A stretch of 64,000 nucleotides of DNA, taken from Candidatus Aminicenantales bacterium. Lineage in GTDB: Bacteria; Acidobacteriota; Aminicenantia; Aminicenantales; UBA4085. Position numbers and translations under genes: made by a program. Positions within the stretch are counted from its first letter, which is position 1, and each line of letters opens with the position of its first letter. Positions 28,003 to 54,125 of this stretch are shown piece after piece. The notes beneath the pieces are model-generated. The model did not search any database, was not told where the DNA came from, and saw nothing but the letters and a program-made list of their open reading frames with translations. The DNA lies in NCBI GenBank assembly GCA_049515535.1, contig JBEKTZ010000002.1, positions 273,467-337,466 on the forward strand, in the 5' to 3' direction.

Positions 28003-29187
28003 TCAACGGAATGTATGCGTGATTTTTATTTTTTCGTTGACTTTCAGATTTACGTCTTCGACATAGGAATGAAAAGACGCGTTCTTGATTTCGATCCGGT
28101 GTTTTCCCGGCGGCAGCGAGAGATTGTTCAAGGGCGGAGTGGGTCCCTTATCCTGACCATCGGCATAAACCTCGCCCCACGGCGTGATGGCGAATTGAAC
28201 GACTCCCGCGGGCGCTTCCACGGCCAGCGCGCCGGATTCGCCGGCTTTGGCTCCCGTCTTCGCCGGCGGCGCGTCTTTCGGATGCTCGTCCAGGGCCGAT
28301 GGGACGGCATCGGCCTTATCGAGAGCCGTCGCCTCGGTCTGGTCGTTCTTTGGAGAACGGAGGACGAGGAAAAGAACGACGATGAGACCAAAAGCAATGG
28401 GAATCGCAGGATAGAGCCAGTTCTTTTTAAGCCAGCTAAGCCAGTTATGCCAGAACGGCCGGTCCTGAGAAGGAACCGTCGGCGGCTTCGGTTTTTCATC
28501 CGGGCAGGAAACCGGCGCAGGCGGCTGCTGAATGGACTCGGCCGGAGCCGCCTTTAATACTTCGGTCTTCTCTTGATCGACGGCATCCTCTTGTTGATCG
28601 TGTTGTTGATCATGCTCGGCCGGCTCCTCGACGACAGGTTCTTTGGCCGTCTCCTCCACGGAATAGAGTTCATGTTCCCGGACGTGCTTATCGGCCCGCA
28701 TTCCTAGATAGTGGAACAGCTTGGCGTATTCCTGAGAAAGGCAAGATACGACTTCAAAATAGGATCGGGAAACCAGGACCTGGCCCGGCGCGGCGAAACT
28801 CATGACGCGTTGGGCCACGTTGATGCCGTCGCCGATGAGATTTTGTCTCTTGTTGATATCCTTGACGAGCTTCACCGGCCCCAGGTTGATCCCGATTCGA
28901 ATGGACAAAGGCATTCCCGGATCCTGCTGGTCGCCGACGACCGCGTCACGGAGGCTCAGGGCGCAAAAAAGAGCGTCTTCGGGGTCCCCGAGAAAACAGA
29001 TGGCCGCGCCGTCTCCAGAATCGAGGATGAGGCGGTCGTTGACGGCGACGTCCTTGATCGCCTCGGCGACGTGCTTATTGAGATGTTCTTTGATCTTGAT
29101 CTGTATTTCGACGGGCTTCATCGAATAATCGACGATGTCGAGAAAAACGACGCTGCAGATAGAAGTCTTGTTTTGGCGGGCGATCAC
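28003..29187 (-). CDS. Class III nucleotidyl cyclase + linker + TM + PEGA-like domain
   Basis: FLDIVDYS, GDG, RIGINLGPV, GDGINVAQRV; acidic/Pro linker; TM helix; I.PWGEVYADG...G.TPP....L.PG.H.IEI. Confidence 0.8.
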   Translation of the reverse strand: MIARQNKTSICSVVFLDIVDYSMKPVEIQIKIKEHLNKHVAEAIKDVAVNDRLILDSGDGAAICFLGDPEDALFCALSLRDAVVGDQQDPGMPLSIRIGINLGPVKLVKDINKRQNLIGDGINVAQRVMSFAAPGQVLVSRSYFEVVSCLSQEYAKLFHYLGMRADKHVREHELYSVEETAKEPVVEEPAEHDQQHDQQEDAVDQEKTEVLKAAPAESIQQPPAPVSCPDEKPKPPTVPSQDRPFWHNWLSWLKKNWLYPAIPIAFGLIVVLFLVLRSPKNDQTEATALDKADAVPSALDEHPKDAPPAKTGAKAGESGALAVEAPAGVVQFAITPWGEVYADGQDKGPTPPLNNLSLPPGKHRIEIKNASFHSYVEDVNLKVNEKIKITHTFR

Positions 29188-43555: not shown

Positions 43556-44149
43556 TCAAGAAGCGGGTTCTTTCCCCACGTTGCTATCAGCCGGTAGGGA
43601 CGGATCGGGAGATCCCAAAAGCTCTCTGATCTTTCCCAGTGCGGCCATTTCCCGGGACGCGTCAATATCCGAATTTTCCTGGAGGATATCGCTTTCCGGA
43701 ATTCTCGTTTCAAGGCCGTACAGCTTTTCCAGGTGGCCGATCAATGACTTCACCTGGTCATTCGCCTCGAATCGGAGTTCCTGGAATTTTCGATCCAAGG
43801 CTTTGACCGCCGACCATTCCGTGTTCAGTGATTCCGTCAGTTTCCAAATGCTATTCTTGTATTGCGCAGCCTGGTCGGCATGGCCGTGGATCTGATTTTT
43901 AAGTTCCGCGCCGCCCTCTTCAAGTTCGGAGATGATGTTGAATTGCCGTTTCAGCTCGTTCTTTTCTTGATCGATCTCCTCTTTGATCTGTTGGATCTTC
44001 AGGTCGGCTTCCTCCCTAAGACTTCGGATCTTTTCATCGAGTTGTTTTCCCAGATCCTCCTTGCGGCCGGCCAGGGCTTTTTCAAAACGCCCGTCGAGCT
44101 CATCGGCGAATGAGGACAGTTTCTTTTTCGTTTCGTCTTTAATTATCAT
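43556..44149 (-). CDS. Hypothetical coiled-coil protein (paralog A)
   Basis: GAGGGAG RBS before MIIKDE; charged heptad pattern; collinear similarity to 44452-45090. Confidence 0.8.
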   Translation of the reverse strand: MIIKDETKKKLSSFADELDGRFEKALAGRKEDLGKQLDEKIRSLREEADLKIQQIKEEIDQEKNELKRQFNIISELEEGGAELKNQIHGHADQAAQYKNSIWKLTESLNTEWSAVKALDRKFQELRFEANDQVKSLIGHLEKLYGLETRIPESDILQENSDIDASREMAALGKIRELLGSPDPSLPADSNVGKEPAS

Positions 44150-44381
44150 TTTCTCCCTCAAACCATGGTTTGTTTTCATATGGTAATCAAATGAATGTAA
44201 AAAGTCCAGACATCGCAAAAATATTTTTATTCTTTCGCTCGCGAAATATCATCATAGAGAAAAAACGAAAATCGTCAGCCGAGAAATGCACCGGCCATCA
44301 TGATATTTGACATTTTTGGGCATGATATTTCGAGATTAATCGACAATTTTTGTCAATCTGTAAAACGACGCAGAAAATCGC

Positions 44382-44413
44382 TTGACAATGAAAATATATG
44401 ATTATAATTATCA
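44382..44413 (+). promoter_or_regulatory. Putative promoter with an overlapping Fur-family 7-1-7 box
   Basis: TTGACA (44382) and TATAAT (44403) with a short 15-nt spacer; TGATTAT-A-ATTATCA at 44399-44413. Confidence 0.5.
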
Positions 44414-44451
44414 TACGTACTTAAATCTCAACGGGCGCTAAGGAAATCAAA

Positions 44452-45090
44452 GTGTTTACAAAAAAGGACGAATCAAAAAGACGATTCCAATTGGTCTCGA
44501 ACGAAATCGAAGATCAGTTGGACAAGCTCCTCGTGGACCGGAAGCTCGAAATTGTAAAGGTCCTGGAAGGGAGAGTCAAGTTCCTCAAAGAAGAAGCCGA
44601 GAAGAAGATCGAACAGACAAGAGACGATATCTATCAAGAAAAAAAGGAGCTTAAACATTATTTCGGGCTCATCGCCGAACAAGAGAATTTGGGAGACGAG
44701 ATCCGCGGCAAAATCGCCGCCCATGCCGGTCAAGTGACCCAATATAAAAAGGAAATCCTGAAATTGGCGGATGCGGTGCAGCACGAAATGCTCGCGACAG
44801 ACGAACTGGGTCAACAGCTCGATCATCTCCAAAAGGACGCTCTTGAAAAAGCGACTTCGCTGAAGAATCAGCTGCAGGTCAAATACGGCATCGAAACGAA
44901 ACTCCCGGATAGCGATATCCTTAAGGAAAAGGCCAATTCGGACGTGGCTGGTGAGCTGGAAAAAATCGGAAAAATCAAAAGGCTCATCGAGCCGGCTGAA
45001 TTCCCGTCGCTTGCGGAAAAGGCCGCGGAAAAGGAATCTTCTTATCGACCGATCGAAAAGAAAAATCTCGAAACCGCTTTCCCGAGCTGA
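44452..45090 (+). CDS. Hypothetical coiled-coil protein (paralog B)
   Basis: GTG start after AAGGA; similar to paralog A (YGIETKLPDSDILKE versus YGLETRIPESDILQE). Confidence 0.8.
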   Translation: MFTKKDESKRRFQLVSNEIEDQLDKLLVDRKLEIVKVLEGRVKFLKEEAEKKIEQTRDDIYQEKKELKHYFGLIAEQENLGDEIRGKIAAHAGQVTQYKKEILKLADAVQHEMLATDELGQQLDHLQKDALEKATSLKNQLQVKYGIETKLPDSDILKEKANSDVAGELEKIGKIKRLIEPAEFPSLAEKAAEKESSYRPIEKKNLETAFPS

Positions 45091-45112: not shown

Positions 45113-45496
45113 ATGGCCATCCTTTGCCCGAATTGTCATAAACAGTTTGACGTAACCCTTTTTCAGTTCGGGCGCGAAGTGGAATGCGATTGCGGCACGG
45201 CGTTCAATCCTTTTGCCGCGGTGCCCTTCGAGATTCCCATCGACGGAGTCCTGGACCTGCATACGTTCCGGCCTTCCGAGGTCAAAGACCTGGTTCCGGA
45301 ATATCTTCACGCCTGCCTCGAGAAAAAGATTCTCCGAATCAGGATCATCCATGGCAAAGGAACAGGGACGCTGCTGAAGACTATTCACGCGATCCTCAAG
45401 AACATGTCCGACGTCGAAGCTTTCGATTTAGCCGGAGAGAATGAAGGCGGCTGGGGCGCGACCATCGTCCGGCTCAAAGAACCGCCGGAACATTAG
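45113..45496 (+). CDS. Smr-domain protein with N-terminal zinc ribbon
   Basis: CPNC...CDCG; LDLHTF, IIHGKGTG.L, GGWGAT.V.L. Confidence 0.88.
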   Translation: MAILCPNCHKQFDVTLFQFGREVECDCGTAFNPFAAVPFEIPIDGVLDLHTFRPSEVKDLVPEYLHACLEKKILRIRIIHGKGTGTLLKTIHAILKNMSDVEAFDLAGENEGGWGATIVRLKEPPEH

Positions 45497-45558
45497 GCGC
45501 CGGTCTTCCCATCATGGCCGCGCCGTCAAGAGGCGAAAAGGCTATCGGGAAGTTCGGG

Positions 45559-45623
45559 GTCAAGGGACGAGCCTTCGCGGCAGAAGAGTGGACCCCCGGG
45601 CAAAGCCCGGGCCCCGGCCGCCG
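45559..45623. repeat. Dispersed structured intergenic element, copy 2
   Basis: Matches both ends of 16679-16781 but lacks the internal hairpin. Confidence 0.8.
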
Positions 45624-45630
45624 GGGAGAT

Positions 45631-45708
45631 TGGCGCGCCTGGCCGGACTCGAACCAGCGACCAACAGTTTAGGAAACTGCTGCTCTATCCATACTGAGCT
45701 ACAGGCGC
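45631..45708 (-). tRNA. tRNA-Arg(CCT)
   Basis: GCGCCTG acceptor stem, anticodon loop TTCCTAA, GGTTCGAGTCC, CCA encoded. Confidence 0.95.
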
Positions 45709-45785
45709 GCTGGTCGCCCTGCAAATATAGCTTAACTTTCCTCTTTTTTCAAACCGGAGGGCCATATCCATCCGGAGCCGGTCAA

Positions 45786-45960
45786 CTTGGAGGGGGAATC
45801 CGCTTCGCGTTTCCCCCTTCCAACGGGCACCGGGAAGACCCGGTCGCCCTGCCTCCCCTTCTCGCCCTATGCTCCGCATAGGACTGCGACCAAGGGGGCG
45901 ACTCCCCCTTGGATCCCCCTACGAGCGGTTTCCCGCGGCTTGCCGCGAAAAACCACTCGT
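45786..45960. repeat. Five consecutive GC-rich hairpins; the first part is related to the 134-bp repeat
   Basis: Reverse complement AAGGGGAGGCAGGG[hairpin]CCCGTTGGAAGGGGGAAAC...TTCCCCCTCCAAG parallels AAGGGTGGCAGGG[hairpin]CCCGTTGGAGGGAAAC...TTTTCCTCCAAG. Confidence 0.75.
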
Positions 45961-47462
45961 CATCTTGTGAGGCTATGCACGAACTTTCTGAGATATTCCA
46001 GGATAGTCTTTTTGTTCGTGCCGTCCTGAATATCCTTATCGGATAGTTCCTTGATTTTTTTGAGGAATTCCCTGTTCTGCTCGTTGCGGGCGCTGACGAT
46101 CTCGGCGATCGTCTCGGCCAGGGCGGGATTGCGATTGAGAAGGACGGCGAAATCATCCGCCTGGATCTCTAGAAGCTCGGATTCCTCGGCGACGATCCCC
46201 GTCGCTGTCCGCGGCATTCCCGTGAAAAGCGACATCTCGCCGATGATTCCTCCGGGTTCGAGCGTGAACTCGGACAGAAATTTTTTTCCGCTTTCTTCAT
46301 ACGCGATCTGCCCGCGGATCTTCCCTTTGGCCACGACGAAACAACTTCTCCCCTTCTCGCCCTGCCGGAAAAGGATCTCGCCCTTGGCGTAAGAAGAACG
46401 GCGGACCTGGTTCGCCATGGTTTTAATATCCTCGTCCGAAATGATCATCCGGCCGGAGGAATCGCCTTGGGGATGGCGGAGAAAAGACGAACGCCGTAAA
46501 TCTTGAAAATTCCCTTCGCTGTCCGCCGCTGGGGCGCTCCCGCCTTCGCGGGACGAGGAGCTTTTCATCGCCTGAACGATGTCCCCGACCTTTTCGCCCA
46601 GGGGCACTGCGATATCGATCTTCGCCCGGCGCAGCTTATACCAGGCCAACCGCCCGACATCTCCCATGATCGGGTTTTTCCGGGCGAAATCGGTGATCCA
46701 GAATTTGCAAAGATAGGAAACGCCGAACTCGTCATAGCTCGTGATGTACGCCTCGGGCGCGGGAGCGTCGAGGACGTCGGAAGCATCGTTCGCCGCCTCG
46801 AGCAGCGCCTTGAGGACATCGGCGGCGGGAGCGTCATAGCTGATTTTGAAGGTCATCGTCAACGCCGCGATCGGATCGGGCCTGGAAAAATTCGTGATCC
46901 GCTCCGTGGCCACGGTGTTATTGGGCAGGATGATGATGTTGGAATAACGGTCGAGGATCCGCGTCTCCCGCCAGTTCGTATCCATGACGATGCCTTCGTA
47001 CGGCCCGATCTCCACCCAGTCTCCGCGGCTGAACGCTTTCGTGAAATGGAGCGATATTCCGGAGAAGACGTTGCTCAGGACGCCTTGAAAGGCGAGGCCG
47101 ATGACGGCCGTGAGAATCGCCGATCCGGTCAAATAGGGTTTGATATCCACTTGGAGCTTGTGGAGGATGATGAGAACGAGGATGACGTACAGAACGGCCA
47201 GGATCAGGCCGCGGAGAACATCGGGCAGCGGGTAAGGCTTGCGGCGCCGCATGTACCAAACGAGCAAGGCCGCGTCCAAGAGGCGGATGACAAGAAACAC
47301 CCCGAAAAATACGAGTCCGGCGGCCAAGATGGAGCGGATCGCCTCGCCGAGAGTCACGGTTTCTTGAACGATGAGGATGACCAAGATGACAGCGGCGGGA
47401 AAGCCGAGTCGGGAGAGGAAAATCTTCAAGCTTTTTCCTTTGGAGATCGAAGTGTGCGTCAT
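45960..47462 (-). CDS. MscS-family channel with C-terminal cyclic-nucleotide-binding domain (bCNG-like)
   Basis: GLAFQ..L.N..SG, F..GDW.EI, G.V...NWR.T, PN; cNMP cassette FRQGE.G...GEMSLFTG.PRTAT. Confidence 0.92.
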   Translation of the reverse strand: MTHTSISKGKSLKIFLSRLGFPAAVILVILIVQETVTLGEAIRSILAAGLVFFGVFLVIRLLDAALLVWYMRRRKPYPLPDVLRGLILAVLYVILVLIILHKLQVDIKPYLTGSAILTAVIGLAFQGVLSNVFSGISLHFTKAFSRGDWVEIGPYEGIVMDTNWRETRILDRYSNIIILPNNTVATERITNFSRPDPIAALTMTFKISYDAPAADVLKALLEAANDASDVLDAPAPEAYITSYDEFGVSYLCKFWITDFARKNPIMGDVGRLAWYKLRRAKIDIAVPLGEKVGDIVQAMKSSSSREGGSAPAADSEGNFQDLRRSSFLRHPQGDSSGRMIISDEDIKTMANQVRRSSYAKGEILFRQGEKGRSCFVVAKGKIRGQIAYEESGKKFLSEFTLEPGGIIGEMSLFTGMPRTATGIVAEESELLEIQADDFAVLLNRNPALAETIAEIVSARNEQNREFLKKIKELSDKDIQDGTNKKTILEYLRKFVHSLTR

Positions 47463-47503
47463 GGCCTCCTCGCCTTCACAAATCATTCGAAAAGAACGCC
47501 TCG

Positions 47504-48322
47504 TCAGAAGCGGTGAACCCCGCCCTCACGGGCGCATTCCGCATTCGGAAACATCTTCCGCGCCAGGCGTTCGATCGCGCGGAGGTCCCGATCGGAATAA
47601 TCGGGATTCAGATGAGCGAGAACGAGCCGCCGCGCGCCGCAGGCCCGGGCCGTTTTCACCCCATCGAGCCACGTGCTGTGACCCCACCCTTTTTTAGCGG
47701 ACGCGTATTCCTCGGGCTTGAACATCGCGTCATAGATCAGGCTGTCCGCGCCTTTGGCGAATGCGGCCAGCCGCTCGTCCAGCTTTTGTTCCGGAGGTTC
47801 CGTATCCGTGGCGAAAACGACGGCCGCGCCCTTTTCTTCGAGCCGATAAGCGACCGATCCCTGGGGATGATGGAGAGGGCAAGTCGATATCCGCACGTCC
47901 CCGATCGAAATTCCCTCCGCGCCGATCGTGCCGAAAAGCTTTTTCGCCGGAGTCTGCTCAAACGGCGCCGGAAAGAACGGGGGGCCGATCAAAAGCCCGA
48001 GATACCGCTGCGCGGCATCGGGCTCGACGGGAGTATAAACGGCGATTTCGGTCTCGGGCGAAAACAGCGGCTTGAAAAACGGCAAGCCGGAAATATGATC
48101 GAGATGGAAATGGGTGAGCAGAAGCGTCAGGCGGAGAGGCGTCTGTCGCGCTTTTGAAGCCAGTTCATTTCCGAGCGCTTGTATTCCCGTCCCCGCATCG
48201 ATGATGAATATTTCTCCGCTTCCGGACGTGACCGTCGCGCATGGCGTGTTCCGGCCGTATTCGGACGCCTTCTTTCCCAGAGCGGGAAAAGTCCCTCGCA
48301 CTCCCCAGAATCGAAGCTCCAT
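47504..48322 (-). CDS. MBL-fold metallo-hydrolase (RNase Z/phosphodiesterase-like)
   Basis: FWGVRG, IDAGTG, THFHLDH, HP.G, TDTE, GWGHST. Confidence 0.88.
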   Translation of the reverse strand: MELRFWGVRGTFPALGKKASEYGRNTPCATVTSGSGEIFIIDAGTGIQALGNELASKARQTPLRLTLLLTHFHLDHISGLPFFKPLFSPETEIAVYTPVEPDAAQRYLGLLIGPPFFPAPFEQTPAKKLFGTIGAEGISIGDVRISTCPLHHPQGSVAYRLEEKGAAVVFATDTEPPEQKLDERLAAFAKGADSLIYDAMFKPEEYASAKKGWGHSTWLDGVKTARACGARRLVLAHLNPDYSDRDLRAIERLARKMFPNAECAREGGVHRF

Positions 48323-48336
48323 GCCGCTCCTCTCTT

Positions 48337-50433
48337 TCACTTCGTCGTCAAATCGGCCACCCGGTCCCAATCGGCGGGCGGCCGATTCTGTTCAAAGCGC
48401 AGACACCGATCCAAATATAGTCCAGCCAGGGGATCTCCGGCAAGCGTTTTGAAACCCTCGATCGCCGCGTCCCATCGCCGGTCTCTGTAGCTTTGCAGGG
48501 CGCGATGATAGATTTCGATCGCCCGGATCCCGTCCGGAGAAACTTGACTCTTCTCGCCGACGAGCTCGTAGATCCTGACCGGCCGCGTCTTCCCGGAAAC
48601 TCGGACCAGATCCACTTCTCGCCCGACGATTTCGTCCTTGACCCGGGCGAACGTGCTTTCCCCGGCCAGGAGCGGGACGCGATAGAACTTGCAGGCGCTC
48701 TCCAGCCTCGCCGCCAGGTTCACGGTATCGCCCATGGCCGTGTAATCGAATCGCCGGCTCGAGCCCATGTTCCCCACGACGGCCGGTCCCGTGTTCAAAC
48801 CGATGCGCGCCCGAAGGACATGGCCGAACCTGCGCTCGAATTGCGCGGCGCTGTGGCCCAACTTCGTTTGGCAGGCCAGCGCGGCCCGGCACGCCTTCAA
48901 GACATGTCCGGGATCATCGAGCGGGGCGTTCCAAAAGGCGACGATCGCGTCTCCCTCATATTTGTCGAGCGTCCCGCCGGCGGTCAGGATGATGTCCGTC
49001 ATTTCCGAGAGATACGCGTTCAACAGGCCGACGAGCTCGTGAGGCGAGAGTTTTTCCGCGACGGTCGTGAAGCCCGCCACATCGGAAAAGAAAGACGTGA
49101 TCTCCCTCTCCTCTCCCCCGAGCCGAAGGAGCTCCGGAGTTTCGATGATGCGTTCGATGACGGCCGGACTCAAATAATGATGCAGGACGTTTTTGATGAA
49201 ACGGCGCTGCCGGCCTTCGACGCTGTAGTTTAAAACCGACGCGCCGATGAGCGTCAGGACCACGGCGACCATCGGAAAAACGACATCGAGCCAGACGCCC
49301 GCGGTCAAGGCCAAGACGGCGGCGGCCGCAGGAACGGCCGGAAAGACGAGAAACGTACCGGCGATGAGCCAAGCCTTCCGCAGAATCGACGCCGCGACCC
49401 CGACCAGAAGAGCCCAGAGAAATGTCAAAGCGGACAACGCCATCGGAGACGCGGGGCGGATGAAAGGTCCATGCAAAAGCGTGTCGAGGGCGGCGGCGTG
49501 GATCTCGACGCCCGGAATGACCGCGCTTAAGGGGCTGGATTTGAGGTCATGGAGGCCGACGGCGCTGAGTCCGACGAGGACGATCTTGCCCGCGAATTCC
49601 CGCGCCGGGATCTGCGGCTTCCGGCCGTCCTGCATTTGCGCCCAGGAATTGATGAGGGTCGCGATCGGATAGGCGCGGTAGGTCCCCGCCGGGCCCCAAA
49701 AGCGGATGATCATCCGGCCCGCTTCATCCTTGGGTATCAAGGACAAGTCCACGGTTCCCCGGACGAAGTTCGCCAGGGCCAAAGGAACGGAAGGCAGAGT
49801 CAGGTCGCGAAAGCCGAATGCGAGCGGCAGGCGTCGATAGATGCCGTCTCCGTCGGGATTGACCCCGACGTTGCCGACTCCTCGGGCGGCTTCGAGAAAA
49901 ATCCCCAGCGGCGCCGCGACGGACGTCAACCCCGTAACCGCCGGCGGACCGACCGGCGTCTTCGAAGAGAACCGGCCGAGGCGTTTGACTGCGGCCTCGT
50001 CGCTTTCCATCTCCTCCGCGCTGAGGGCAATGGGGACGAAAACGTTTCCCACATCGGCCATGGCGCGCGCCAGGATCGCATCGTCTTCCGCTTTATAAAC
50101 GGACGTTTCGGACATGGCCATATCCAAAAAACAGGCCGCCGCGCCGCCCGCTTTCAAATACCGGAGCAGATAGGCGTAGATCTCTCGCGGCCACGGCCAG
50201 GAAAGGCCCTGCTCTTTCCTATAGACGTCGAGGCTGTATTGGTCCACGAGGATGAGAACAATGTCTTTCCCGGCGCGTTCCGGATTGGCCATAAGCCGCA
50301 ATCTCGCGTCCCAGGATTTCCATTCGAGCGCCCGGAACAGATGAAGCGTTTGAAGGGCGAAAGCGATCAAAAACGCGGCGGCGCCGACGAGGATGCCACG
50401 CTCTATTTTCTTTTTCACTTCAGAGAGCCGCAA
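48337..50433 (-). CDS. CHASE2-domain membrane adenylate cyclase (class III)
   Basis: WPWPR, D.DG..RR, PGVEIHA (CHASE2); TM helices; FSDVAGFT, DKYEGD, DYTAMGDTVNLAARLES. The real start may be the GTG at 50418. Confidence 0.92.
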   Translation of the reverse strand: MRLSEVKKKIERGILVGAAAFLIAFALQTLHLFRALEWKSWDARLRLMANPERAGKDIVLILVDQYSLDVYRKEQGLSWPWPREIYAYLLRYLKAGGAAACFLDMAMSETSVYKAEDDAILARAMADVGNVFVPIALSAEEMESDEAAVKRLGRFSSKTPVGPPAVTGLTSVAAPLGIFLEAARGVGNVGVNPDGDGIYRRLPLAFGFRDLTLPSVPLALANFVRGTVDLSLIPKDEAGRMIIRFWGPAGTYRAYPIATLINSWAQMQDGRKPQIPAREFAGKIVLVGLSAVGLHDLKSSPLSAVIPGVEIHAAALDTLLHGPFIRPASPMALSALTFLWALLVGVAASILRKAWLIAGTFLVFPAVPAAAAVLALTAGVWLDVVFPMVAVVLTLIGASVLNYSVEGRQRRFIKNVLHHYLSPAVIERIIETPELLRLGGEEREITSFFSDVAGFTTVAEKLSPHELVGLLNAYLSEMTDIILTAGGTLDKYEGDAIVAFWNAPLDDPGHVLKACRAALACQTKLGHSAAQFERRFGHVLRARIGLNTGPAVVGNMGSSRRFDYTAMGDTVNLAARLESACKFYRVPLLAGESTFARVKDEIVGREVDLVRVSGKTRPVRIYELVGEKSQVSPDGIRAIEIYHRALQSYRDRRWDAAIEGFKTLAGDPLAGLYLDRCLRFEQNRPPADWDRVADLTTK

Positions 50434-51329
50434 TACTGCCGGAACCGCCGGGTCCGGACCTCTTCGATCCGGGGGGGCGTCCCCAAGCCCGCGATCCCCT
50501 TGTTGATAAGGGCGATCCTCTGCTCCGGCGTGGGATGCGTCTTGAACCAGCCCCTGCCCGCGGCGGCCGATCGATCGCCGACCATGGTCATGAGAAAACG
50601 GACGATGCCGTCGGGGGCGAAACCCGTCCGGGCCCCGAACTTGACGGCCAAGCCGTCGGCGTCATATTCGAATTGGCGGTCATAGCCGCGCTCGATGAGT
50701 TGCCCCACGATGTCGCTCAGCACACCTTCGAAAATGGTCGTCAATTGCGCCAGATCCTGCGGGCCGAACCGTTGGACGGCCTGCGCGCCGAGGAAGGCAA
50801 AGGCGTCCATGAGTCGCGATTTCTTGATGGCTTGAAGCCCATGTTTCGCGGCGACGTGGCCGATCTCGTGGGCCAGGATCAAGGCCAGCATTTCCTCGTC
50901 CTGACATCGCCGTAAGAGCCCTTTCGTCACGAAGATCATCCCGCCCGGCGCGGCGAGGGCGTTGATCTCGTCCGTATCGAGGACCAGGAAGTGATATCCG
51001 GCGTAAATCTCCGGCCGGTCGGAAAAAACGGCCACGGAGTTTCCGACGAGATTGACGTAGCGCGTGAGGCCGTCGTCTTGATAAACGGGATATTTGCCGA
51101 GAATCAGGGCGGCCACCGACCGCCCGATGTAATACTCCTCCTCTTCGGTGATATCGGCGAAAGAGCTCCGCAGTTTTTGGCCGGCTTCGATGACCGTCTT
51201 CGCGTCGTTGGCCGTCGACATCGCGGAATTCAAGACTCCGGTCGCCTGCTGGATCGCCGAACACGCCACGAGAAGCGCCGCGAAACCCAAGGCCGCCAGA
51301 GACACGGTTCCGATGCGCGCGGCCTTCAT
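50415..51329 (-). CDS. M48-family zinc metallopeptidase lipoprotein
   Basis: Lipobox LVAC; NALAAPGG.I.V..GL, HEIGH, EYDAD, THP.P..R. Confidence 0.9.
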   Translation of the reverse strand: MKAARIGTVSLAALGFAALLVACSAIQQATGVLNSAMSTANDAKTVIEAGQKLRSSFADITEEEEYYIGRSVAALILGKYPVYQDDGLTRYVNLVGNSVAVFSDRPEIYAGYHFLVLDTDEINALAAPGGMIFVTKGLLRRCQDEEMLALILAHEIGHVAAKHGLQAIKKSRLMDAFAFLGAQAVQRFGPQDLAQLTTIFEGVLSDIVGQLIERGYDRQFEYDADGLAVKFGARTGFAPDGIVRFLMTMVGDRSAAAGRGWFKTHPTPEQRIALINKGIAGLGTPPRIEEVRTRRFRQYCGSLK

Positions 51330-51811
51330 TTCGCGCCTCCGAATGCGCCGAGCTTGCCCTTCTTGAGAAAATCCTCCACTTGGGCAAGATCGACCTTGAT
51401 CCGAAGCATAGCCTCAACGCCGGCGAAGTTCGCTTCGCCGTGTTTGGCCCTGTAACTGTCTTCGACTTGACTGTTGAAGCCCTTGCCGGCCAGGGCGACC
51501 TCGCCGGCCGAGGCCTGCGTCTTCATATTCTTATTCATCGCCTGAAGGCTGAACTTGGAGATCTCCACGGCGCTCGAATGGACCCAGCCGACCGCCCCGG
51601 AGGCGGCCTTCACTTGGATCCAGCCGTTCGCCTCGCTCACTTTTTCGAGCTTCTCCCCGGCTTTCAGCGTCGCGATCGACGCGGCGAAAAACTGCGGGCT
51701 CTTCCGGATCTGCGTCGTCTGAACACTGACGACGAGGAGGTCGGCCGCGGCCGTCGCCAGGGACAAGGTCATGGCGACGAGAAGAATGACGAAGGACCTG
51801 GGTTTTCTCAT
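51326..51811 (-). CDS. Secreted SH3b-domain protein
   Basis: Signal peptide; IR.SP, GW.QV....G..GWVH; C-terminal EVALAGKGF motif. An alternative start at 51832 overlaps the recD2 stop. Confidence 0.8.
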   Translation of the reverse strand: MRKPRSFVILLVAMTLSLATAAADLLVVSVQTTQIRKSPQFFAASIATLKAGEKLEKVSEANGWIQVKAASGAVGWVHSSAVEISKFSLQAMNKNMKTQASAGEVALAGKGFNSQVEDSYRAKHGEANFAGVEAMLRIKVDLAQVEDFLKKGKLGAFGGAK

Positions 51812-51828
51812 AAGGGTTTCTCTCCGCT

Positions 51829-54018
51829 TCATCGTAAATCAAACCCGCTTCCCGCCTCAAGGAGCTTTTCCTTGATCAGGCTGTTACGCTTGACGGGTTT
51901 GTCGTTCTTGATGGCGATGTAAAGGGCCTTGTATGACCCGATGATGATGCTCAATTTTTTGGCCCTGGTGAGCGCCGTGTAAAAGAGATTCCTCTGGAGC
52001 ATGATGAAATGCTGGGTCAGGAGCGGCATGACCACAGCCTGGTATTCGCTGCCCTGCGCTTTGTGCACGGAAACGGCATAGGCCAGGGTGATGTCGTCCA
52101 GGTCGTCCTTTTCATAGAACACGGGGCGGCCTTCGAAATGGACAATGACCCGGTATTTCGCCTTGTCGATATGGACGACGGTGCCGATGTCGCCGTTGAA
52201 GACGTCCTTCTCATAGTCGTTCCGGATCTGCATGACTTTATCGTGGAGCTTGATCTCGCGGCTCCCGACCCGGATGCCGTCCGCGGCGCCGTTGAGCCTT
52301 TTCTGGAGTTCCGCGTTCAGCCGATCCACGCCGACAAATCCTTTATACATCGGGCTGATGACTTGAATCTGGGGTGAGAGAGGGGGAAGGTTGAGCTTCT
52401 TCGGAATGCTGTAGCCGCAGAGGTTGAGGATCGTTTTGGAAACCTTCTGCTCGTCTTCCTGGTGGATGAAATAGAAATCCGAGTCCTTGTCCTCGCGGGG
52501 CGGGTAAAGGATGGACTGTCCCTGGTTGATCCGATGGGCGTTCTGGATGATGAGGCTGTTGCGCTCCTGGCGGAAGATCTCGTCGAGCCGGACGACGCTG
52601 ACTTGTCCCGATTCGATGAGGTCGCGGAGGAGGGTCCCGGGTCCGAGGGCCGGCAGCTGGTCCTTGTCGCCGACGATAATCAGGCGCATCGAGGCCGGCA
52701 CGGCCTTGATCAGCGAGGACATGAGCGAGAGATCAACCATGGAAAATTCGTCGATGATGATCGCGTCGCCGGTCAGCGGATGCCGATCGTTCCGGCGGAA
52801 GCCGTTGAGCCTCGGGTTGAATTCGAGCGTCCGGTGAATGGTCTTGGCCTCTTTGCCGGTGGTCTCCGAGAGCCGCTTGGCCGCCCGGCCCGTCGGAGCG
52901 GCGAGCAGGATCTTCTTTCCCCATTTGTCGAAGACGGCGGTCACGGCCTTGATGATCGTCGTTTTTCCCGTGCCCGGCCCGCCCGTGATGACCAGGATTT
53001 TTTTCTGGAAGCTTTCCCGGATCGCCGTCTTCTGGGTTTCCGAAAAAGCGATGGCGAGGTCCTTTTCGACGTCGGCGATCACCAGATCGATGTCAAACGG
53101 GGGCTGGAAAAACGGGGCGCGGGCCAGGGTGTGAATCGACCGGACGACGTCGGTCTGCGCCTGAAAAAAGAAGGGCCGGTAGACCGCCGTATCCGTGGCG
53201 AGCTTTTCGGCGACGACGAGCTTCTCGGCTTTCAAGTTTTCGAGCGCGGCCCGGATCATCTCGTCGTCGAGACCGATCTCTTCCCGGCAGCGGCTCATGA
53301 GCTCGCTTTCGAACGAAAAGACATGCCCCTGCTCATTGTCTTTTTCGAGGAGATAAAGAATGAACGCCTTGAGGCGCTGCGGGGACGCGGGGTCGATGCC
53401 AAGTTTCAGGGCGATCTGATCGGCGGTCTTGAAACCGATGCCCACGATATCGAGGCAGAGCTGGTAAGGATTCGTTTTCAGGACATGATAGGACTTTTGC
53501 CCGTAATGGCGATAGATCCTCGTCGCCAGGTTCGTCGAAACGTTGTGTTCCTGAAGGAAGATGATGAGGTCCCGGATGTCCTGATGTTCCGCCCAGGATT
53601 TCTTGATCTCGCGGAGCTTGACGGCGCCGACGCCGTCCACGTCTTTCATCCGGTCGGGATGACGGGAGAGGATGTCGAGCGTCTCTTCCCCGAATTTCTT
53701 GACGATGCGCTTGGCCAAGACCGGTCCGATGCCCTTGATGAGGCCGCAGGACAGAAATTTTTCGATCCCTTTGGCGCTCGACGGCAGGACAGGGACGAAG
53801 CTTTCCGCCTTGAACTGGGGGCCGAACTTCGGATTCAGCTCCCATTGTCCCGAGATTTTCAGACGTTCGCCGGGAGAGAGGGGCGGGAAGCTGCCGACGA
53901 CCACTTTCGTTTCGCCGTCGTCGATGGAAAATTTAAGGACCGAATAGCCATTCTCAGGGTTGAAGAAGAGGATCTGTTCGATCGTCCCTTCGAGCTGTTC
54001 CGCCATTTTTTCTATCAT
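51829..54018 (-). CDS. recD2: ATP-dependent RecD-like DNA helicase
   Basis: N-terminal HhH motif (IKGIGP), TGGPGTGKTT, APTGRAAKRL, DEFSM, GDKDQL, YAVSVHKAQGSEY, YTALTRAK. Confidence 0.94.
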   Translation of the reverse strand: MIEKMAEQLEGTIEQILFFNPENGYSVLKFSIDDGETKVVVGSFPPLSPGERLKISGQWELNPKFGPQFKAESFVPVLPSSAKGIEKFLSCGLIKGIGPVLAKRIVKKFGEETLDILSRHPDRMKDVDGVGAVKLREIKKSWAEHQDIRDLIIFLQEHNVSTNLATRIYRHYGQKSYHVLKTNPYQLCLDIVGIGFKTADQIALKLGIDPASPQRLKAFILYLLEKDNEQGHVFSFESELMSRCREEIGLDDEMIRAALENLKAEKLVVAEKLATDTAVYRPFFFQAQTDVVRSIHTLARAPFFQPPFDIDLVIADVEKDLAIAFSETQKTAIRESFQKKILVITGGPGTGKTTIIKAVTAVFDKWGKKILLAAPTGRAAKRLSETTGKEAKTIHRTLEFNPRLNGFRRNDRHPLTGDAIIIDEFSMVDLSLMSSLIKAVPASMRLIIVGDKDQLPALGPGTLLRDLIESGQVSVVRLDEIFRQERNSLIIQNAHRINQGQSILYPPREDKDSDFYFIHQEDEQKVSKTILNLCGYSIPKKLNLPPLSPQIQVISPMYKGFVGVDRLNAELQKRLNGAADGIRVGSREIKLHDKVMQIRNDYEKDVFNGDIGTVVHIDKAKYRVIVHFEGRPVFYEKDDLDDITLAYAVSVHKAQGSEYQAVVMPLLTQHFIMLQRNLFYTALTRAKKLSIIIGSYKALYIAIKNDKPVKRNSLIKEKLLEAGSGFDLR

Positions 54019-54125
54019 ATGTGATTCAACGGCGGGGGTCAAATACGGCGTAACATCGGGCTGGAGGATCGCCGGCGACGCGCGGAATGCATCCTAAAAC
54101 GGTCCCATATGTATCTTTATTTATC

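Follow-up and report, generated by a model that had tools for sequence, protein, structure and literature searches.

The stretch analyzed here (the window) comprises 64,000 nucleotides of contig JBEKTZ010000002.1 (assembly GCA_049515535.1, positions 273,467 to 337,466) of Candidatus Aminicenantales bacterium. On its minus strand, five open reading frames follow one another, encoding an SH3b protein, an M48 lipoprotein, a CHASE2 cyclase, a metallo-beta-lactamase (MBL)-fold hydrolase, and an MscS-family channel with a domain that binds cyclic nucleoside monophosphates (cNMPs) (Table 1). A first-pass annotation had described them as co-oriented genes with overlapping or very short junctions, and both the reading frames and the junction lengths are found in the sequence. 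The SH3/M48 junction is an ATGA overlap and the M48/cyclase junction a GTGA overlap, in which the cyclase GTG overlaps the M48 stop codon; the cyclase/MBL gap is 14 bp, and the MBL/MscS gap is 41 bp, or 17 bp counted from the first MscS ATG. The GC content of the block (0.57-0.63) resembles that of most of the window. A promoter and terminator scan gave no convincing internal site, with a terminator count at the level of shuffled sequence. The same annotation called the locus self-contained, which is wrong, since recD2 abuts the SH3 gene (an ATGA overlap if the first SH3 ATG is used, 17 bp if the likelier start is) and a tRNA-Arg(CCT) gene comes after the channel. The module is built from known families, but as a set it is apparently undescribed: no published account of the five genes together was found, with subscription journals and supplements lying outside the search.

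Table 1. Positions of the five genes and of neighboring features in the window.
Feature	Position	Strand	Remarks
SH3b protein gene	51326..51832	-	likelier start 51811; Pfam SH3_3
M48 zinc-protease lipoprotein gene	50415..51329	-	Pfam PF01435
Transmembrane (TM)-CHASE2-3TM-class III adenylate cyclase (Lys/Thr type) gene	48337..50418	-	GTG start; Pfam PF05226+PF00211
Cytoplasmic MBL-fold hydrolase gene	47504..48322	-	ATG start; Pfam PF12706 (Lactamase_B_2)
MscS-family channel + C-terminal cNMP-binding domain gene (bacterial cyclic nucleotide-gated [bCNG] architecture)	45960..47462, or start 47486	-	Pfam PF00924+PF21082+PF00027
recD2 helicase gene, upstream neighbor, outside module	51829..54042	-	TIGR01448 above cut-off
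~180-bp multi-hairpin genomic repeat, outside module	45781..45962		genome matches, folding z -5.8
tRNA-Arg(CCT) gene, downstream neighbor	45631..45708	-	conserved in orthologous loci

The motifs listed in the first-pass annotation (DKYEGD, DYTAMG, and N567/R571 in the cyclase, HEIGH and E221 in the M48 protein, HxHxDH in the MBL protein, and GE...PRTAT in the channel) are all present, and the key residues are conserved in orthologs. The cyclase has the layout of a CHASE2 receptor cyclase, TM segment, periplasmic CHASE2 domain, three TM segments, and cyclase domain, with hydrophobic segments at residues 4-23 and three more within 323-401; the Pfam scan returned CHASE2 (PF05226, 172 bits) and Guanylate_cyc. 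It carries the two metal Asp residues, the Lys and Thr/Ser pair, and the Asn/Arg pair of class III Lys/Thr (class IIIb) enzymes. Among orthologs, D446 is kept in 99/99, K486 and D490 each in 98/99, N567 and R571 in 95/99, and T560 in 94/99, most misses being gaps. The best PDB match is CyaB (3R5G), which has the same DK..GD and DYT motifs and with which the six key residues align. The enzyme is predicted to make cyclic AMP (cAMP) from ATP. A search for sequence relatives of this CHASE2 domain gave no solved structure. Sister CHASE2 cyclases (L213-L219) have neither an SH3 nor an M48 partner; in the five of these loci that were scanned the next gene encodes an RsmE-type RNA methyltransferase, followed in four by an RDD gene. 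A class III cyclase-like gene of 394 codons also lies elsewhere in the window (28003-29187, minus; L003:766-1950), with PF00211 just over cut-off and a product that runs from cyclase domain through an apparent TM segment to a C-terminal domain. A stand-alone class III cyclase-like gene (L002:1420-2091, 223 residues) directly precedes a radical-SAM-like gene (CxxxCxxC) in an AT-richer-looking, possibly mobile stretch.

The M48 protein has an LVAC lipobox, the HEIGH motif, E221, and a THP motif, with a single N-terminal hydrophobic segment and neither TPR domains nor HtpX-like membrane helices. The HExxH motif, the third ligand Glu, and a PF01435 match above cut-off place it in Peptidase M48, and H154, E155, H158, E221, and H265 are each conserved in 111/111 orthologs; the lipobox pattern occurs in 86/113 homologs. 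Its nearest solved structures are 3C37 and the BepA protease domain, and it falls below the equivalog cut-offs of BepA (83/570 bits), LoiP (46/365), and HtpX (26/369). It shares with BepA, LoiP, and 3C37 export and the HExxH...E...HP site, and with LoiP the lipobox (the status of LoiP being taken from the NCBIfam model name); it differs from BepA and LoiP in having no TPR region, in scoring far below both cut-offs, and in being always paired with an SH3b protein. A twin-arginine-like motif stands ahead of the lipobox in 23/113 homologs (L082, L086, L089, and others), which suggests export by the twin-arginine translocation pathway in some Desulfobacterota.

The SH3b protein is hydrophobic at residues 11-37, and most homologs are ~161 residues long, in agreement with the start at 51811. 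Its structural model (predicted local distance difference test, pLDDT, 74; predicted template modeling score, pTM, 0.43) contains SH3 strands, low-confidence residues 65-82, and four small helices; we read it as an exported protein in which a disordered linker joins the SH3b domain to a small, conserved module of helices at the C terminus. A fold search with the model gave matches to the SH3b part only (dipeptidyl-peptidase VI and endolysin SH3b domains; root mean square deviation 1.2-1.5). Pfam, the model, and these matches thus agree on the fold of the peptidoglycan-binding SH3b class, but binding of wall peptide does not follow from this alone because the fold does not show the ligand. The C-terminal module carries EVALAGKGF, of which ALAGKGF is among the best-conserved stretches, and A115, G118, and F119 are kept in 116/116 orthologs. 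Two apparent SH3-M48 fusions (P0380 and P0298) were not accepted: both still contain the M48 signal peptide internally, P0298 has out-of-frame stretches, and they are probably read-throughs of frameshifts.

In one separate lineage of Acidobacteriota, 6/7 loci place an M48 gene immediately ahead of a CHASE2 cyclase gene. In L220:6568-7716 and L221-L227, directly ahead of the cyclase, the M48 protein has a C-terminal extension weakly like the SH3 tail. The last 18-20 residues of the L220 protein match that tail (single-sequence E 0.0009; 0/1000 shuffles; hhalign 65%, P 5.9e-5), but the match ranks only 22nd against a background of 18,076 frames, and a model of the ALAGKGF motif gave no score on it, 291/1000 shuffles being as high. 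With the statistics thus mixed, the likeness is a weak lead only.

The MBL protein has an N-terminal G-R-G motif, HxHxDH, H152, D173, H215, and H237. H71, H73, D75, and H76 are each found in 43/43 orthologs, and the metal ligands overall are invariant in 42-43 of 43, giving the HxHxDH two-metal MBL site of class II cNMP phosphodiesterases. MBL-fold cAMP/cGMP phosphodiesterases are documented, and Bacillus subtilis YhfI, Apyc1, and yeast PDE1 share this two-metal fold, as described in PMC9117128. The protein here, a candidate cNMP phosphodiesterase, differs from these three in belonging to a distinct G-R-G-motif family, often fused to signaling domains, that lies outside PF02112, PF23023, and NF041851 at cut-off. 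Its profile comes nearest to RNase Z, BA1088/6KNS, and PhnP, with weak matches to yeast PDE1 and to the structures 6KNS, 1ZKP, and 4OJV. By sequence, its closest relatives of known structure are RNase Z and YhfI-like proteins; the score against the RNase Z model TIGR02651 is 83.5 bits with a cut-off of 293. One homolog (P0245) is fused to REC and cyclase domains. A genome that lacks the SH3, M48, and cyclase genes (G029) keeps a 51% ortholog in a run of cNMP-binding, AI-2E, and MBL genes beside an FHA-GAF cyclase gene. In this alternative cAMP module (L200:4666-8951) the adenylate cyclase gene is divergent from those for the cNMP-binding protein, the AI-2E transporter, and the MBL ortholog. 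That the operon's MBL enzyme erases cAMP is plausible but unproven.

The channel has the bCNG architecture by Pfam, in which MscS domains (MS_channel_2nd/3rd) are fused to a C-terminal cNMP_binding domain. Its phosphate-binding cassette, GEMSLFTGMPRTAT, is conserved in orthologs and intact, with G408, E409, and R418 in 32/36 rows and gaps in the remaining 4. The pore helix reads AILTAVIGLAFQG, compared to GAAGLAIGLALQG in MscS 7DLU, and the channel therefore departs from the canonical Gly/Ala pattern. Two PF00027 proteins are encoded in the genome, the channel and a Crp/Fnr regulator beside a 4Fe-4S gene; the cassette of the regulator lacks the Arg, so the channel alone among the cNMP-binding proteins of this genome has its cassette intact. 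By coordinates, the operon channel is the sole PF00027 match in 12/41 Aminicenantales genomes (60-97% complete), so that in many members of the order it seems to be the sole cAMP reader, and it is a good candidate for that role. MscS-cNMP genes in other layouts, or outside the clade of linked channels described below, adjoin cyclases as independent pairings in L132, L190, L191, and L220; at L220 the gene is convergent with an M48-CHASE2 cyclase pair, and at L191 a PF02112 class II phosphodiesterase occupies the MBL slot beside channel and cyclase. MscS-cNMP proteins of ~1100-1160 residues are found at L190:793-4269, L192, and L193, and the one at L190 has an N-terminal periplasmic binding domain (Peripla_BP_6/ANF_receptor), which suggests a doubly ligand-controlled channel.

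The bCNG channels share this fusion of MscS domains to a cNMP-binding domain, but they have been described mostly from cyanobacteria (Caldwell 2010 and Malcolm 2012, cited in PMC13591265), and here candidates for cyclase and eraser lie adjacent. A 2026 review, in the part available, describes their role as poorly explored, with no physiological role or structure known, and names neither a cyclase nor an eraser that belongs to them (PMC13591265).

The five-gene module is a core feature of the order: cyclase orthologs (E<1e-100) were found in 36/41 Aminicenantales genomes, M48 and cyclase genes accompany the SH3 gene in all 32 SH3-bearing loci, and MBL and channel genes follow in 26/26 loci with room downstream. 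The linkage of the last two genes to the SH3-M48-cyclase trio, which the first-pass annotation had left to be checked in gene neighborhoods, thus holds in every informative locus of the order, and it is not chance, because the gene order is the same in all 26. The recD2 gene lies upstream in 29/32 SH3-bearing loci, a neighborhood confined to Aminicenantales, and tRNA-Arg lies downstream in 23/36 orthologous loci; recD2 is retained in genomes without the module. Of the five genomes with no cyclase ortholog, two (G003 and G011) look unassembled at the locus, and two (G035 and G037) also lack the MBL gene, an M48 ortholog, the cNMP channel, and any PF00027 match, the empty site of G037 having recD2 ~130 bp from tRNA-Arg. 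The fifth is G029, which has the MBL ortholog but not the trio.

Across phyla, the fixed unit is the trio, with the MBL and channel genes as accessories. The trio is widespread: in GTDB genomes, at least 575 matches to the SH3 tail motif were confirmed. Of the loci, 80 were kept, 79 after one duplicate was dropped, and this set is biased because its ranking followed similarity to a single query. It spans Desulfobacterota, Verrucomicrobiota/Kiritimatiellia, Spirochaetota, Fibrobacterota, Krumholzibacteriota, and others. M48 directly follows SH3 in 75/79, and 68/79 loci contain the cyclase; the SH3 and M48 genes stay adjacent even where the cyclase has moved, and in 5/5 tested cases of a detached pair the cognate CHASE2 cyclase was found elsewhere in the genome. 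Co-inheritance is also seen in a 251-genome, evenly sampled set from one phylum, where SH3 occurs in 23 genomes and the top CHASE2 subtype (E<=1e-77, a threshold set post hoc) in 22, with an overlap of 21; at E<=1e-73, 22/23 SH3 genomes have the CHASE2 type, the extra one having an adjacent CHASE2 gene at 1e-73. Two of these genomes were in the training alignment, and related genomes are not independent. Among 301 Acidobacteriota, the same 11 genomes carry SH3 and the CHASE2 type. In 12 further loci of the Desulfobacterota sample the order is cyclase-SH3-M48 in 10, and neither MBL nor channel was found in any of the 12. Among the loci from other phyla, 52 are informative in that they extend at least 2.6 kb downstream; an MBL gene is present in 13 of these, a channel in 8, and both in 6. 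Neighbor clustering and a Pfam search of 31 co-oriented downstream genes gave no substitute cNMP reader or phosphodiesterase. MlaE/MlaD-type genes lie just upstream of the module in L143:6352-9880 and related Kiritimatiellia-type loci.

Unrooted FastTree trees, in which Aminicenantales rows were thinned to every third locus for channel and MBL, split the five-gene form between two cyclase clades. All linked channels fall into a single clade (support 100; 14 rows, among them the moved MBL-channel pair of L177), and the linked MBL proteins group weakly (support 86). One channel clade together with a weak MBL grouping fits one old five-gene operon followed by losses, although unrooted trees of this kind cannot settle the order of events.

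The trio has partial counterparts elsewhere. In Sinorhizobium meliloti, as described in PMC13001267, the CyaD1/CyaD2/CyaK-NsrA-Clr pathway likewise combines CHASE2 class III cyclases, a signal passed through a separate envelope protein, and a cNMP-binding reader, but that pathway uses an outer-membrane beta-barrel as input and a Crp-family regulator as reader; here the candidate inputs are the SH3b protein and the M48 lipoprotein, the candidate reader is a channel, and all are in one operon. In the mtxA cluster of magnetotactic bacteria, too, the gene for an exported accessory protein immediately precedes that for a conserved CHASE2 adenylate cyclase, though this accessory protein is Ig-like/TPR, and the available text of PMC4439547 mentions no protease, MBL protein, or channel.

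We read the locus as a housekeeping signaling module with the trio as its core, in which the periplasmic pair would control the cyclase, cAMP would be made, the MBL enzyme would remove it, and the channel would read it; we give this reading about an even chance of being right. The SH3 and M48 proteins would form the periplasmic input to CHASE2, with the SH3 C-terminal module working with the M48 protein, and would relay the state of the envelope, either through binding of a wall peptide to SH3b or through a substrate of the protease, possibly by proteolysis. Envelope stress is favored as the signal only on the grounds of the SH3b fold, the BepA-like protease, and the MlaE/MlaD neighbors in one lineage. 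The final step, in which cAMP would tune channel opening and turgor would fall under envelope stress through the release of ions or osmolytes, is the weakest. Contact of the pair with CHASE2, the signal, cAMP hydrolysis, and channel gating are what we infer here. A predicted complex of M48, CHASE2, and SH3, with SH3 as the partner, scored 0.80, the controls with SH3 replaced 0.00, and the control with CHASE2 replaced 0.82; we count this prediction neither for nor against the model. A stronger version, a reflex in which a protease-gated peptide signal, formed by the M48 lipoprotein and the SH3 C-terminal module, reaches CHASE2, cAMP opens the channel to lower turgor on wall damage, and the MBL enzyme resets the system, we consider rather unlikely; if it is true, a bCNG channel would for the first time have a cognate writer and eraser, the MBL protein would found a new cAMP phosphodiesterase family, and a protease-lipoprotein would provide input to CHASE2. 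The module offers a cognate cyclase and a candidate phosphodiesterase as candidates for what drives bCNG channels, and two candidate input proteins for how CHASE2 domains receive signals.

Several observations weigh against the full writer-eraser-reader scheme. The linkage of MBL and MscS genes to the trio, general in Aminicenantales, also holds for both genes in 6/52 informative loci outside the order, but 37/52 have neither. A full channel-cNMP gene is present anywhere in only 20/55 trio genomes, the other 35 giving no full match, although these metagenome-assembled genomes are incomplete. Two further class III cyclase-like genes exist in the genome, so the operon cyclase is not its unique cAMP source. 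The weak grouping of the linked MBL proteins counts here too; the MBL protein gave no PF02112 or PF23023 match at E<=0.01 and scored 36 bits against NF041851, with a cut-off of 400; members of its family are fused to kinases and HD domains too; and 17/20 unlinked homologs have no cyclase or cNMP-channel gene within ~10 kb. According to the 2026 review, what cyclic nucleotides contribute to bCNG gating is not settled even for the members described, and a tension-gated bCNG channel appears among its references (PMC13591265). The first-pass idea of writer, eraser, and reader in one operon stands in part, for a conserved module with an intact writer and with candidates for reader and eraser; the trio alone is obligate.

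The same MBL data could mean that the trio is real and the channel reads cAMP, but that the MBL protein is an RNase Z/PhnP-like phosphodiesterase acting on another substrate, e.g., 2',3'-cyclic nucleotides or a cyclic phosphate, which entered the operon a single time and has since been passed on as part of it. The relatives with solved structures (RNase Z and PhnP), the missing PF02112 match, the isolated homologs, and the presence of the family in 48/55 trio genomes regardless of linkage favor this version, to which we assign a modest chance; an eraser is favored by the G029 ortholog, which is still found with another cyclase and with a gene for a cNMP-binding protein, by the joint absence of MBL protein and cyclase in G035 and G037, by the MBL-REC-cyclase fusion, and by the true class II phosphodiesterase in the same slot at L191. 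At the input end, the SH3 and M48 proteins might instead be an envelope-maintenance pair with BepA/LoiP-like quality control functions, co-regulated with or downstream of the cyclase, while CHASE2 binds a small ligand of its own. The M48 relationship to 3C37 and BepA, the adjacency of the pair where the cyclase has relocated, the partnerless sister cyclases, and the MlaE/MlaD genes of Kiritimatiellia-type loci would all fit such a pair. We nevertheless regard it as unlikely, in view of an almost one-to-one correspondence with one CHASE2 subtype that holds also where the genes are not linked, the separate lineage with M48 directly before a CHASE2 cyclase, and the input through an envelope protein reported for S. 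meliloti CHASE2 cyclases (PMC13001267).

At the output end, the channel could be a tension-gated MscS-like protein whose cNMP domain only modulates or stabilizes it, with the main cAMP output of the trio elsewhere, and the lack of a channel in most trio loci and the review that leaves bCNG gating by cNMP open (PMC13591265) are compatible with this. It is quite unlikely, given the 12/41 genomes with no other PF00027 match and a cassette Arg and Glu that are invariant where aligned. The first-pass annotation had also likened the operon to cyclase-plus-membrane-effector defense systems. Pycsar systems pair a pyrimidine cyclase with a TIR or TM effector and are patchily distributed, in defense islands or on mobile elements. 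As a system of that kind, the operon would have infection trigger the cyclase and the channel depolarize or kill the cell. The shared elements are a class III cyclase and a cNMP-binding or membrane effector (in part from PMC9117128), and the matches to PycC models (best E 6e-29) and PycTIR models, made by the cyclase domain and the cNMP domain respectively, are at the domain level only. The operon otherwise departs from the Pycsar description, with a receptor-type cyclase, purine-type Lys/Thr residues, a core chromosomal position, and a candidate off-switch. The orthologous cyclase, found in 36/41 genomes, almost always occupies the same site behind recD2; the GC content resembles the rest of the window; only 5/137 flanking genes match PADLOC at 1e-15, the two also scanned with Pfam being a DEAD helicase and a methyltransferase; and no SH3 relative was found in viral contigs and no M48 match in plasmids at E<=1e-25. 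With the operon at a fixed core position, the likeness is unsupported and a defense role very improbable.

Downstream, the ~180-bp repeat overlaps the MscS stop codon and could double as a terminator. It has 37 matches in the genome, 28 of them of at least 100 bp, and many copies begin with GTCAA and finish with GTCA(A); in this it resembles non-autonomous elements of the IS200/IS605 type and may be one of them. No match to it was found in loci orthologous to the five-gene locus, and an Rfam scan of 45400-46100 matched the tRNA alone. Farther on are two divergent coiled-coil genes with no Pfam family above cut-off (43556-44218 and 44452-45090), apparent paralogs of ~215 residues that lie in a dip of low GC content (0.435 at 44000-44999).

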